NCBI RefSeq assembly: GCF_000026545.1
Contig: NC_011601.1
Direction: 5' to 3' (one strand)
Origin: Escherichia coli O127:H6 str. E2348/69
GTDB lineage: Bacteria; Pseudomonadota; Gammaproteobacteria; Enterobacterales; Enterobacteriaceae
DNA length: 64,000 nucleotides
A program made the translations under genes and the position numbers. How positions within the stretch are numbered: position 1 is the stretch's first letter; each line of letters opens with the position of its first letter. Below the pieces are notes generated by a model that saw only the letters and a list, made by a program, of their open reading frames with translations, had not been told where the DNA came from and ran no database searches. This document shows positions 32,533 to 55,922 of this stretch, piece after piece.

Positions 32533-32557
32533 GCGGGGTCAATGCCCCGCTTTTTTA
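32533..32557. terminator. Hairpin between convergent acyltransferase and tailspike genes
   Basis: GCGGGG / CCCCGC stem followed by TTTTTT on the plus strand. Confidence 0.6.
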
Positions 32558-35242
32558 TTTTATCCTGTAATAAGTAGATCCTACACTAAGGAACTCATAT
32601 ATTCCTTGTGATGACAATGTAGTTATAAGTGTAGGTCCATTATAAATACCGATAGTCTGACCATTGAAATTTACTGATGAAAGATCTAGTAAAACCATGC
32701 TCCTAAGAAGCGTCCCATTCAATATAGTTAGCTCTGGAAGCATTAGAGTTTTACCAGGAGATAAAGTACCGCCAAATTTTATTATATTTCTAGAATCATC
32801 AGGCCATGGTGAAGCCGAGTTAATATCAGGTATTATTAAAATCTTACCTGAGTCACGATAGTCTGATGTAGAATAGAATGTTCCTTTACCTGAAGTATGT
32901 TCGTTATCATAAATGCCAGCAGGGGCATTTGTGAGAACAGGCTGATTAAATCTAGTACCTGCGAATCTTGCAATATCAGGTGCAGAAGTAGACATCGTTA
33001 GTGTTGGTTGCCCATTACCATTAAACCCAATTGCGTTTTCGCCAATACTTGATCTAGAAAATTCATTTACATCAAAGAAACCAATATCAGTGAATCCACC
33101 TTCGCTCACTGATTCATGGCTGTTTCCGGTAAATGAAAAATTAGTAAAACGAGATGAGCATTTAAAAGCCGGTCCTGATTCTGTAGTGTGGTGCCTACCA
33201 AACTTAACACCGGTGAATGTAATGTTATCACCATTTACACAATCCATAACATTGCTGATGTACCCAGAACCTGAGTTCCAACCAATAGAACCGCCTACCC
33301 ATGAAAAACCATCAAACTCCAGAATGTCAAATATTTTACCGCCTGTAAAAGCATAGTGTGTGCAGTTTGATAACATACATGACTTCATTCTTCGGCCACG
33401 AAAACCATACTTAGTACCAAACAGATGGATATTAACAAACTGTCCGCCTTCAATTCCTTGAATGCTGCCGCCACTCAAATCTGTACCGCCTACAAATTCT
33501 TTGGTCCCATCGACTATGATGTCATTCCACAATCCGTAATGACCCAGACCTGAACCTTCTCCGCCTCCATTTCCATCTTTGAATGAGAAAGTTCGATATG
33601 TTTGCAGAACCCATAAGTTGCTTATAGTAGGGTTCTCTATGACATCTAAACTGATGCATGCTGCTGTGCGCGGATAGGTGTCATCTGGTAACTGATGCGC
33701 TCTTGATGTAAATCTGACAACTTTTGTGACGTTCGATATCTCTGACGAAGGGGTTCCATTGCATCCAGTAACTCCGGTTAATGTACAACTCCCATCAGAG
33801 TTATTAACAAGTCCTGTAGCAAAGAAAGCCCCAGAGTTAGTGCTGAATTGACAGAAGTTACTTACTGGAACACCTGCGGTGTTGTTGTCAGTCAAAGGCC
33901 ATGTAATTATATTTCCACCATTAGCCTGAAATGGATTTGATACCAGAGTAATGGTGTTGGATGTTTTGCTTATCACATCTGTATTTTCTGATCCTACATA
34001 TTGTGATAACACCAGGCGGTCTAATGAATAGCAAACATTACCAAACACAATCCCCCTTGAGTTAAGTCCAAACCTTATCTCTGGGACATTCCCCAGAGAG
34101 TTTATTACACCTTCACCTCTTATTCCTATGGATACAGGGATTCCATCAATGGCAAATGGTATTGCAACCTCTGTGATTATGTTTACTTTTGAGTTAGCTG
34201 TAACAATCAACTCTCCGTAGCCAAGACGCACTAACGAGTAAATAGCAAGTTTAATTGCTGGTGAATCATTTGTGATGCCGGGTTTCTCAATGAAATTTTT
34301 TACTTCATTGATTCGGTAGCCATTCAGAAGTCCAACGCATGCCCATTTAGTTGTTTCGACATCCGGAAATTCACCAGACGAGATGGTGTGAGGTAATGCT
34401 CCAGTCCATACGTACCATAGCCCATCAGCATAAAGACAAGCATCATTCTTAGATGAAATGGTTAAACCTGAAGAAAATTCTGCCTTTTTGACAAAAATTG
34501 ATTGTTGGTAGTCGCTATAAACTGTGCCTCCATATGAGCTACCAATTTTTTTATCACCGTTATTTGCCAGCTCAATTAAAACATCTGAAGCAGAACCAGA
34601 TTCAGGTAAAACAGCAATAGGTTTACCGCCAGAATCAAAAGCAAGTATTTTATTTGATCTATCAGCATTTGATGGTATCTGGTCAACATAATCCTCAGGA
34701 ACTCTTAAGGTTCTTTTAAATAGAGAATCTGCATAAGAAATGTTACCTTCAGCAACTCCGTCAACGTAATTTTTTGTAGCTGCATCCTGTGGTCGTGACG
34801 GGTCACGAAGATTTCGTATGTAGTTACCCAAGGCATCATAATAATTTGCAATAAAAGATGGCTTACGTAAAGAAAGGCGCAGCCAACTAATTGCCTGCTG
34901 TATCAGCATGGTCAACTTATCAAAAGCATCCTCATGCACTTCTGCGAAAAACTTACCCTGATTTCTGAGATCAGTTTCCTGGGTAACCGGTAACTCTCTG
35001 GATATCGAAATCTGATAACCATTGGCAAGAGGCGACGATAAAACAACATTCCCGCCAGTATATCCGCCAGCCCCTGTCACCGTGTAATCAGTGTCCAGTG
35101 TTAAGTCAGTGATGTTTTCGCTCAGGTCAACAACCTGCACCACCAGATCAGACTTATGAAAAATTCGGAAGGTATAAGGGAATGATGTCGTGACCCCGTT
35201 ACCTGTGTAGTCATTGTGGTCAACTTCGGTTGAAACCGTCAT
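32555..35242 (-). CDS. Tailspike / tail fibre with T7 gp17-like N-terminal adaptor
   Basis: ORF 32555..35284; start placed at MTVSTEV (GGAG ribosome-binding site); N-terminus DYTGNGVTTSFPYTF resembles the T7 fibre N-domain. Confidence 0.65.
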   Translation of the reverse strand: MTVSTEVDHNDYTGNGVTTSFPYTFRIFHKSDLVVQVVDLSENITDLTLDTDYTVTGAGGYTGGNVVLSSPLANGYQISISRELPVTQETDLRNQGKFFAEVHEDAFDKLTMLIQQAISWLRLSLRKPSFIANYYDALGNYIRNLRDPSRPQDAATKNYVDGVAEGNISYADSLFKRTLRVPEDYVDQIPSNADRSNKILAFDSGGKPIAVLPESGSASDVLIELANNGDKKIGSSYGGTVYSDYQQSIFVKKAEFSSGLTISSKNDACLYADGLWYVWTGALPHTISSGEFPDVETTKWACVGLLNGYRINEVKNFIEKPGITNDSPAIKLAIYSLVRLGYGELIVTANSKVNIITEVAIPFAIDGIPVSIGIRGEGVINSLGNVPEIRFGLNSRGIVFGNVCYSLDRLVLSQYVGSENTDVISKTSNTITLVSNPFQANGGNIITWPLTDNNTAGVPVSNFCQFSTNSGAFFATGLVNNSDGSCTLTGVTGCNGTPSSEISNVTKVVRFTSRAHQLPDDTYPRTAACISLDVIENPTISNLWVLQTYRTFSFKDGNGGGEGSGLGHYGLWNDIIVDGTKEFVGGTDLSGGSIQGIEGGQFVNIHLFGTKYGFRGRRMKSCMLSNCTHYAFTGGKIFDILEFDGFSWVGGSIGWNSGSGYISNVMDCVNGDNITFTGVKFGRHHTTESGPAFKCSSRFTNFSFTGNSHESVSEGGFTDIGFFDVNEFSRSSIGENAIGFNGNGQPTLTMSTSAPDIARFAGTRFNQPVLTNAPAGIYDNEHTSGKGTFYSTSDYRDSGKILIIPDINSASPWPDDSRNIIKFGGTLSPGKTLMLPELTILNGTLLRSMVLLDLSSVNFNGQTIGIYNGPTLITTLSSQGIYEFLSVGSTYYRIK

Positions 35243-55332: not shown

Positions 55333-55922
55333 TCTTCACCACCAGCCCGCTCTTTCACGCGACGGCGGGCCTTAGCCATGCGGTCGGCAATGGTGACGGT
55401 GCCGGAAACTTCCAGGCGCTCTTTGAACGCATTGACGTCGACGTGCTTACCAATCAGCTCGAGGTTCTTCACCTTGTCAGGCCATTTGATTTTCTTGAGG
55501 ATGGTCTCGATTGATGTCTCATCCATGTTCATGATGGTAGAGGACAGGTCGAAACCACTCAGTGTGGTGCGCCATATCTTCGGCCACTCGCGGATAGGCT
55601 TCAGGGTGCCATCATCGTTCAGGATGTCGATCACATCCATCTGGTCGATTTCCACCAGGCGAAGTAGCACGTAATCAGCACTGACGCGCAAACGCTTGTT
55701 GCGTTCCTCCATCAGCTCGGCGATCCGTTTCTGGATGCGCTCATCACGCATCATGACACTGGCTTTAACCGCTGCCGTATTAGGCGAGAACCCTGCGTTA
55801 ATCGCCGCCTGCGTCTGATTCTCAGGGCATTTGGTATATTCCTGCGCATAAGCCTCCTGCATCGCTGTTAGGGGCTTGTACTGAGTTGATTTTCGTTTTG
55901 GTGCTTTTGGTTCTGCGGGCAT
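55329..55922 (-). CDS. Terminase small subunit
   Basis: ORF 55329..55997; start placed at MPAEPKAPKRK (GGTGG ribosome-binding site). Confidence 0.65.
   Translation of the reverse strand: MPAEPKAPKRKSTQYKPLTAMQEAYAQEYTKCPENQTQAAINAGFSPNTAAVKASVMMRDERIQKRIAELMEERNKRLRVSADYVLLRLVEIDQMDVIDILNDDGTLKPIREWPKIWRTTLSGFDLSSTIMNMDETSIETILKKIKWPDKVKNLELIGKHVDVNAFKERLEVSGTVTIADRMAKARRRVKERAGGEE

Follow-up and report, generated by a model that had tools for sequence, protein, structure and literature searches.

The 64,000-nucleotide (nt) window analysed here comes from the chromosome of Escherichia coli O127:H6 str. E2348/69 (contig NC_011601.1) and holds most of a prophage. Positions 20000-28400 are 100% identical to three E2348/69 assemblies. 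The element is almost certainly an epsilon15-like temperate podovirus (genus Uetakevirus) that a tyrosine integrase inserted at guaA, at the 3′ end of this gene. According to the RefSeq annotation, it occupies ~40.3 kb between yfgI and guaA, from ~28.2 kb to ~68.5 kb in window coordinates; ~89% of it lies inside the window and ~4.5 kb beyond the window's end. Its architecture is the published, standard layout of Uetakevirus, in a prophage already annotated in this reference strain of enteropathogenic E. coli. A sequence-only reading had described positions 32555-55922 as a mosaic, in which a lambda-type switch and O/P replication genes are joined to a T7-like tail and internal-core module. That account is supported in part: it is correct at the level of modules, but has to be amended on how the switch works, on the family of the initiator and on the type of head. 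Its coordinates do delimit a block of virion and terminase genes, whereas the switch and replication genes named in its title lie outside, at 58.5-61.6 kb. The novelty it implied does not survive, as the architecture is canonical for epsilon15-like phages and collinear with epsilon15 over gp1-gp20. Nothing here is a new mosaic, because the P module is shared with phiV10 and Tyrion.

Integration site and relatives of the prophage

The 16-nt attachment (att) core of attL (Table 1) recurs at the far side of the prophage, where it overlaps the guaA stop codon. The core attgagtgggaatgatt has been published for phiV10, epsilon15 and vB_EcoP_ZX5, three phages that use the 3′ end of guaA as their integration site (PMC9782041). 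Integration at this position with the core ATTGAGTGGGAATGAT(T) is a trait of Uetakevirus, and the prophage shows it. The integrase gene, placed at ~67.1-68.3 kb by RefSeq, is adjacent to guaA.

We used the virion and terminase block (32555-55922) as a megablast query against 50,697 phage records, and it matched epsilon15-like phages (Uetakevirus) only. Nucleotide identity was 91-95% over 75-78% of the block for 65FD, SPN1S, SPC32H and SPN9TCW, 91% over 50% for epsilon15, 82% for Tyrion, and 77% for phiV10 and its relatives. The virion genes are thus of the Salmonella SPN1S/65FD lineage and not of the phiV10 lineage that is common in E. coli. Among 5,426 complete E. coli genomes, the adaptor and nozzle genes are found in 538 (~10%), nearly all with ~77% identity, corresponding to the phiV10 lineage; E2348/69 and two other genomes are the only ones with identity of at least 90%. 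A full-text search of the literature for joint mention of E2348/69 and either epsilon15 or phiV10 gave no result. The main value of the present analysis is a clean module map of the prophage, with little beyond correct annotation.

Gene-by-gene BLASTP against epsilon15 proteins, in line with a check suggested in the sequence-only reading, recovered the same homologues in the same order for gp1-gp20, gp23 and the lysis genes. The morphogenesis block is therefore collinear with that of epsilon15 (terS, terL, portal, head, gp11-gp17, ant, tailspike, cargo, lysis, att), another Uetakevirus trait. Amino acid (aa) identities to epsilon15 were 100% for gp3, 99% for the portal, 65% for gp5 and 86% for gp6, and 43%, 37%, 30% and 43% for the capsid protein, gp8, gp9 and gp10, respectively. 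The capsid-shell genes (47166-49035) represent a divergent allele relative to epsilon15, still within the Pfam families of epsilon15.

Comparison with individual phages shows where the prophage conforms to the group and where it departs from it. 65FD, SPN1S, SPC32H and SPN9TCW have the same operator, lysis cassette and gene order, but their tailspike C-terminus and O-antigen cassette are different and their host is Salmonella, not E. coli. The replication module of the 65FD/SPC32H group of Salmonella phages is different too: it consists of one 'DNA replication protein', accompanied in some by a cytosine methylase, and lacks a P gene. Epsilon15, the type member, was sequenced two decades ago and serves as a model system for cryo-electron microscopy (cryo-EM); it is collinear over gp1-gp20, then cargo, lysis and att, and has equivalent operators and terminators. 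Its cargo, however, is a polymerase and an inhibitor rather than an acyltransferase, its recombination exonuclease is different, and it has no P gene. phiV10, Tyrion and TL-2011b possess the initiator and lambda-P-type loader module and the same guaA att core, yet their virion DNA is just ~77-82% identical. Repressors of the phiV10 group reportedly share just 42% identity with that of epsilon15 (PMC9782041), and immunity in that group would hence be expected to differ.

Virion genes and their distance from T7

The gene sizes reported in the sequence-only reading were confirmed. Open reading frames (ORFs) of 556, 328, 201, 825, 154, 180, 836, 600 and 824 aa and the spike ORF are all minus-strand genes, closely spaced, and in many cases the stop codon of one overlaps the start codon of the next. 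The description of this module as T7-like is borne out by the nozzle fold, the fold of the spike N-terminus and the Pfam assignment of the gp14-like protein, but not by the head, which is of the epsilon15/BPP-1 type, nor by BLASTP. When prophage proteins were compared with T7 gp8-gp19 by BLASTP, nothing significant was seen, including for the three large internal proteins versus gp15/gp16. Since no T7 protein is detectable in this way, 'T7-like' as applied to the tail and core means distant homology and not a recent join, a supported reading and a property already described for epsilon15. A review of the ejection proteins of podoviruses (PMC8954989) lists epsilon15 among phages with gp14/15/16-like ejection genes and refers to a T7-like core stack seen in it by cryo-EM; it also states that gp15/16-type assignments are based on size and synteny.

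Judged by modelled folds and profile matches, the tail is of T7 type in its nozzle, its spike N-terminus and its gp14-family protein. For the nozzle, this link required a structure model, because a profile search of PDB sequences missed T7 gp12. That search, with a 32-sequence profile, reached the nozzles of Carin-1 (8ck1, E=0), LME-1 and one further phage, but not T7 gp12, and alignment of the nozzle to T7 gp12 with hhalign gave 192 columns at E 4.7e-4 and a probability of 32%. Pfam searches of the adaptor and nozzle yielded no match even at E <= 10. We built an AlphaFold (AF2) model of the nozzle from the 32-sequence alignment (family of 18,213 representative proteins; mean predicted local distance difference test score, 90.3). 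In Foldseek, this model matched the T7 gp12 chains 7ey9_s, 9jyz_P, 6r21_a and 7boy_s over the full length, with E values of 1e-20 to 7e-24 and template-modelling (TM) scores of 0.50-0.54, compared to a TM score of 0.30 for P22 gp10. The 201-aa adaptor matches PHROG tail and tail tubular families (PHROG 9239 'tail tubular protein', 9e-18). Its identity to epsilon15 gp11 is 99%, and a note in the RefSeq entry of gp11 mentions that HHpred linked that protein to tail tubular protein A of T7.

The sequence-only reading had also proposed a fibre with a T7 gp17-like N-terminus, and a fold search agrees. The N-terminal β-sandwich of the spike aligns with the T7 gp17 N-terminus (7ey9_a/b, 7boz_a) with a probability of 1.0 and a root-mean-square deviation of 1.9-2.7 Å over ~82 columns, in a model that is confident at residues 9-82 only. 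This link comes from the fold search alone, because hhalign against the T7 gp17 N-terminus (probability 4%) and Pfam (no PF03906 match) both failed for the spike itself. PF03906 is carried by three spike homologues of ~60% identity.

Among the internal proteins, that of 180 aa matches Pfam T7_gp14 (PF24072) over nearly the full model, with an i-Evalue of 3.4e-6, and is named 'virion core protein, T7 gp14 family' in RefSeq. The three large proteins that follow have PHROG head or virion structural matches, and their place in the gene order is that of T7 gp15 and gp16. PHROG transglycosylase matches fall at aa ~165-395 of the 836-aa protein, and PDB endolysin and Gp29 matches at aa 247-387; Pfam gave no match to this protein. 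The 600- and 824-aa proteins had no match in the PDB. NCBIfam, run on ten virion and replication proteins, returned just one sub-threshold DnaT match.

T7 itself shares with the prophage the portal-to-fibre order, the nozzle fold, the fold of the fibre N-terminus, the gp14 family and a transglycosylase-like region in one large internal protein. The hydrolase domain of T7 is on gp16, whereas in the prophage the transglycosylase-like region belongs to the first of the three large proteins that follow the gp14-like one (gp15 position). T7 also differs in having its terminase genes last (they are first here), fibres instead of tailspikes, and another capsid family, and the prophage has cement and staple proteins. 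The head is of the epsilon15/BPP-1 type, its likeness to T7 being limited to a shared fold class. In PDB searches, the capsid protein matched 3j4u at 2e-128 and epsilon15 gp7 (3j40) at 5.5e-85, and the combination of a GP7-family capsid with accessory staple and cement proteins is characteristic of Uetakevirus.

Compared with epsilon15, the virion block is itself a mosaic: identities are 93-99% for the portal and gp11-gp14, 30-43% for the capsid shell (47166-49035) and 27-30% for the last two core proteins (35902-40183). Between the gp5-like and gp6-like genes lies a 181-aa ORF (49775-50320, minus strand) that is absent from epsilon15, present in 65FD and assigned to PHROG 17779.

Replication genes and the repressor switch

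The sequence-only reading had pointed to a P-like gene with the PSPGQF motif, and this identification was confirmed, with WPSPGQF present in a 266-aa protein assigned to Pfam Phage_lambda_P (Table 1). Identity to lambda P is 30.6% (tblastn, E 8e-27); it is 84-89% to the phiV10/Tyrion proteins and 76-89% across phiV10, Tyrion and TL-2011b. On this sequence evidence, the protein is a bona fide homologue of lambda P. The records of epsilon15, 65FD and SPC32H contain no P gene, which is one of the alternative replication cassettes known within the genus.

An O-like gene with iterons had also been proposed. The iterons are there, as ~7 tandem repeats inside the initiator gene (59673-59816), spaced 24 and 18 bp, and their location fits a lambda-style origin. 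The gene, however, encodes HTH_36 and DnaT domains, and no match was obtained to the Pfam lambda-O family (Phage_rep_O). Its N-terminal half matches PHROG 'replication initiation O-like' families (3e-16 to 6e-7), and its resemblance to epsilon15 gp42 is confined to the DnaT part (33%).

Similarly, the proposed lambdoid switch is right about the divergent repressor/cro layout and wrong about the mechanism that such a layout suggests. Rep is 97% identical to the SPC32H repressor, for which a solved structure exists (5d50). Pfam detects two HTH regions in Rep and no S24 protease domain, whereas a repressor of CI type with an S24 self-cleavage domain is a trait of lambda-type switches. Because Rep lacks this domain, is of the SPC32H type and is paired with an antirepressor, the switch is lambdoid in layout only. 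A Rep homologue devoid of the self-cleavage domain, together with an Ant homologue, is typical of the SPC32H-type switch; here the ant gene is flanked by the tailspike gene and the last of the core genes. By analogy, an antirepression switch (LexA-Ant-Rep) is probably present. In such phages, according to a review (PMC7380047) that cites Kim and Ryu 2013, LexA cleavage leads to Ant synthesis and then to Ant-Rep binding. Lambda resembles the prophage in its divergent repressor and cro genes with multi-site operators, its iterons inside the initiator gene and its P protein. It differs in its S24 repressor, and the prophage differs in its antirepressor, its DnaT-domain initiator, its operators before late operons and the position of lysis genes at the att end.

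From the seven repressor sites in the epsilon15 RefSeq record we derived the operator consensus ATTACC-N5-GGTAAT, a 17-bp palindrome. The window contains 10 such sites, compared to 0.13 expected by shuffling, and none of 100 shuffles reached 10. Their presence at OL/OR and before late operons is a Uetakevirus trait, and the positions of these predicted sites are equivalent to those in epsilon15. Five inter-operon terminators, each a G+C-rich hairpin followed by a T-run, lie at 55976-55995, 53828-53847, 47132-47149, 35713-35730 and 32533-32550. Thus, the earlier statement that late operons are separated by terminators and operators is upheld.

Homology and site positions together suggest how the prophage may function. 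In the lysogen, Rep would bind the 17-bp operators at OL and OR, and also directly before the late operons (terminase, portal/head and tailspike) and the nin-like operon. If induction proceeds as in SPC32H, DNA damage would free the ant promoter of LexA, and Ant would inactivate Rep with no RecA cleavage of Rep. The iteron-binding initiator would then fire an origin inside its own gene and recruit host DnaB via the lambda-P-type loader. Fold matches and published work on epsilon15 predict a virion with a head of the epsilon15/BPP-1 type (capsid protein, cement and staple) and a short tail made of a gp11-type adaptor and a gp12-type nozzle, on which six tailspikes may dock via their gp17-like N-terminal domain. 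The gp14-like protein and the three large proteins, one with a lytic transglycosylase region, would be stored internally and ejected to bridge the envelope.

Could these parts instead have been brought together recently, a lambdoid early region having been joined to the virion module of a T7-like (Autographiviridae) phage? The P gene, a lambda-P homologue, and the T7-type nozzle, fibre N-terminus and gp14-like protein would fit such a novel hybrid. But the T7 link exists at the level of fold and profile only, with no significant BLASTP match; the whole arrangement is collinear with epsilon15 and more than 40 phage records; and the adaptor and nozzle occur in ~10% of complete E. coli genomes, with the P gene shared by phiV10/Tyrion. 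Moreover, the annotation contains no phage RNA polymerase gene. A single-subunit RNA polymerase and a strictly lytic life style are traits of Autographiviridae, whereas RefSeq annotates an integrase but no RNA polymerase among the genes of the entire prophage, which also has a repressor and an att site. Given the collinearity with epsilon15 and phiV10, we rejected this explanation as highly improbable. P22-like phages are the other temperate podoviruses with early genes of lambdoid type that are common in enterobacteria. A P22-like prophage, which we believe to be next to inconceivable, would likewise be temperate and have early genes in lambdoid order, ejection proteins and a tailspike, and trees described in a review (PMC8954989) place the epsilon15 gp14-/gp16-like proteins nearer P22. 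However, the nozzle model has TM scores of 0.52-0.54 to T7 gp12 versus 0.30 to P22 gp10, the capsid protein belongs to Pfam GP7 and is accompanied by a Bbp16 cement, the DNA matches Uetakevirus only, and the att site is at guaA. No homologue of P22 gp4, gp10 or gp26 and no P22-type capsid was seen in the prophage. This candidate was rejected on the nozzle fold, capsid family, DNA matches and guaA att site.

Assignment to Uetakevirus faces several counterpoints of its own. The integrase end of the prophage falls outside the window, from recT to the integrase gene. The early and spike/cargo regions are just 35-43% covered by the closest isolated phages (41-43% for the early block and 35-40% for the spike/cargo/lysis block). 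Whole-genome coverage multiplied by identity comes, as a rough sum, to ~0.6 relative to those phages; the genus rule of the International Committee on Taxonomy of Viruses is ~70% nucleotide similarity over full length. The roles given to the 600- and 824-aa proteins are based solely on position and on homology to epsilon15 gp16/gp17. Three genes of the nin-like region are marked as partial in RefSeq (56479-56766, 57015-57194 and 57781-57964). Finally, the LexA-box-like site upstream of ant has a non-canonical N9 spacer, with one extra T, and CTGT-N8-ACAG occurs nowhere in the window, although a canonical box in the ant promoter is a trait of the SPC32H-type switch. The last two points also bear on a further possibility, compatible with the Uetakevirus assignment as to kind, namely that the prophage is Uetakevirus-derived and defective or mis-regulated, and not normally inducible. 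The one-base insertion and the partial genes speak for it. On the other hand, every virion, lysis, terminase, replication and switch ORF has its full length, with 83-100% identity to the counterparts in viable phages, and the partial genes are confined to the dispensable nin-like region. The N9 box is also found in assemblies LT827011 and LT903847 (100% identical over the stretch), whereas the canonical N8 box is present in 6/6 relatives: epsilon15, SPC32H, 65FD, two other E. coli prophages and the E2348/69 assembly CP059840.2. Because this last assembly is of the same strain, the extra T may stem from a homopolymer or assembly error, or else be a variant of a laboratory lineage. Were it real, LexA control of ant would be expected to be weakened and spontaneous induction of the prophage to be altered. 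We consider a defective or mis-regulated prophage unlikely, though not negligibly so. The three nin-like partial genes are Ead/Eae-type fragments, probably scars of module exchange.

Tailspike, cargo and other features

The spike ORF extends from 32555 to 35284, but every homologue starts with MTVSTEV, which places the true start codon at the ATG at 35242. The first ~256 aa are common to all Uetakeviruses, and the N-terminus is 72-77% identical in aa sequence to Uetakevirus tailspikes (76% to epsilon15). For the C-terminal ~640 aa, we found no match in phage records and no solved homologue in the PDB (648-aa query), and among complete E. coli genomes this part is complete in E2348/69 only.

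The adjacent low-GC cargo occupies the slot where epsilon15 has its O-antigen polymerase genes and SPC32H its O-acetylase. Its 357-aa acyltransferase consists of an AT3 domain only (Pfam Acyl_transf_3, 3.3e-33; PHROG O-acetyltransferase) and is a putative O-antigen modification gene product. Directly upstream of the acyltransferase gene, a 335-aa ORF (30351-31358, plus strand; 36% G+C) encodes a protein with an N-terminal signal peptide and possibly a lipobox (...LFIIIAC). This protein matches no family in Pfam or PHROG; it has homologues in Salmonella, Citrobacter and E. coli, and relatives of 27-35% identity in Firmicutes. The C-terminal part of the spike and the acyltransferase cassette are likely to be serotype-specific, exchangeable parts. 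As a candidate O127-specific pair, the spike C-terminus and the 335-aa/AT3 cassette are absent from isolated phages and from solved structures. The extra T in the LexA box might alter spontaneous induction, and the spike C-terminus and cargo might form an O127-specific pair for receptor recognition and seroconversion; that at least one of these is real and functionally meaningful seems to us rather doubtful.

Lysis genes at the extreme end of the prophage, beside the att site, had been predicted in the sequence-only reading and are indeed found there: the cassette (28360-30154) is ~110 bp from the att core (28234-28249). At the other end, past the window, RefSeq annotates RecT, xis-like genes, a methylase and the integrase. 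Table 1 collects the features of the part inside the window.

Table 1. Prophage features by position in the window (percentages are identities to the named homologue; operators are predicted sites)
Feature	Position	Strand	Evidence or remark
attL core ATCATTCCCACTCAAT	28234-28249		Reverse complement of published Uetakevirus attP/attB core, guaA 3′ end
Rz spanin	28360-28842	−	PHROG Rz; 87.5% to epsilon15
GH19 endolysin	28839-29465	−	PHROG endolysin; 96% to epsilon15
Holin	29455-29763	−	PHROG holin; 97% to epsilon15
Membrane protein or putative holin	29750-30154	−	Epsilon15 gp23, 100%
Low-GC (36%) cargo	30351-32525	+	335-aa signal-peptide protein and 357-aa AT3 acyltransferase
Tailspike, 895 aa	32555-35242	−	Conserved N-terminal virion-binding domain (aa 1-~256) and unique C-terminal receptor-binding part
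Rep operator ATTACCTTACAGGTAAT	35348-35364		Between tailspike and ant; equivalent site annotated in epsilon15
LexA-box-like site TACTGTATGTTTTATACAGT	35402-35421	+	Upstream of ant; CTGT-N9-ACAG spacing
Antirepressor Ant, 86 aa	35441-35701	+	99% to SPC32H Ant; 94% to epsilon15 gp19
Large internal protein, 824 aa	35902-38376	−	27% to epsilon15 gp17
Large internal protein, 600 aa	38381-40183	−	30% to epsilon15 gp16
Large internal protein, 836 aa	40180-42690	−	Lytic-transglycosylase-like region; 69% to epsilon15 gp15
T7 gp14-family internal virion protein, 180 aa	42703-43245	−	Pfam T7_gp14; 97% to epsilon15 gp14
Internal virion protein, 154 aa, gp13 position	43245-43709	−	PHROG 308 'internal virion protein'; 93% to epsilon15 gp13
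Tail nozzle, 825 aa, T7 gp12-type fold	43709-46186	−	PDB 8ck1_A 'Tail Nozzle' 2e-208; 98.5% to epsilon15 gp12
Tail adaptor, 201 aa, T7 gp11 position	46186-46791	−	PDB 8ck1_E 'Connector Protein' (Carin-1) 2.7e-23
Head genes block	46791-50616	−	99 aa, 181 aa, 236-aa scaffold or 'protease', capsid, cement, 126 aa, staple
gp10-type staple	46791-47114	−	Pfam Gp10-like 9.4e-43
Bbp16-type cement	47557-47997	−	Pfam Bbp16 3.2e-41
Major capsid protein, 328 aa	48049-49035	−	Pfam GP7 2.5e-148
Portal, 556 aa	50613-52283	−	PHROG 332; 98.9% to epsilon15 gp4
Rep operator	52594-52610		Upstream of gp3-portal operon
Terminase large subunit, 493 aa	53851-55332	−	PHROG terminase family; 83% to epsilon15 gp2
Terminase small subunit, 197 aa	55329-55922	−	PHROG terminase family; 88% to epsilon15 gp1
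Rep operator (55942-55958) and terminator (55976-55995, −)	55942-55995		Before terminase operon/terS
Transcriptional regulator, 112 aa, gp49-like	56026-56364	−	PHROG 536; 86% to epsilon15 gp49
Two Rep operators (58370, 58432)	58370-58448		Between P gene and downstream nin-like operon
Lambda-P-type helicase loader, 266 aa	58485-59270	−	Pfam Phage_lambda_P 1.5e-54; PHROG 'P-like helicase loader'; ...FWPSPGQFIKW...
Replication initiator, 268 aa	59267-60073	−	Pfam N-terminal HTH_36 and C-terminal DnaT domain
cro-position gene, 77 aa	60437-60670	−	PHROG 35 'transcriptional repressor' 2e-10; 97% to epsilon15 gp39
OR region, operator repeats (60739, 60756)	60706-60772		Between cro and rep
Prophage repressor Rep, 198 aa	60826-61422	+	PDB 5d50 'Repressor' 4.6e-127; 97% to SPC32H Rep, 98% to epsilon15
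Three OL operators (61480, 61542, 61618)	61480-61634		Consensus match
Early-left operon start (319 aa, 102 aa, PD-(D/E)XK exonuclease)	61793-63880	+	PHROG; RefSeq

Some smaller observations concern the terminase region. The 65FD large terminase subunit (TerL; 16741-19191 in the 65FD record) has 816 aa, with an intein-like insert of ~321 aa that begins directly after the Walker-A motif GHGIGK and ends ...THN, then S. TerL of the window (493 aa) is without this insert, and its C-terminal side is 99% identical to 65FD TerL. On the opposite strand, between terL and the portal operon, an ORF at 53376-53807 (+) contains Cys-rich motifs and has a weak PHROG HNH-endonuclease match (2.8e-5). It is in the position of the opposite-strand ORF p50 of epsilon15, with no BLASTP similarity to p50.

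RefSeq annotates a pseudogenic tRNA-Gly at 53057-53169 (+). In this tRNA-like sequence of 113 nt, the acceptor, D and T arms are clear but the middle is oversized. ARAGORN and Rfam (E <= 1) reported no RNA genes within the prophage, including at this position. Phages of the phiV10 group have a tRNA-Arg somewhere under their DNA match to the virion and terminase block.

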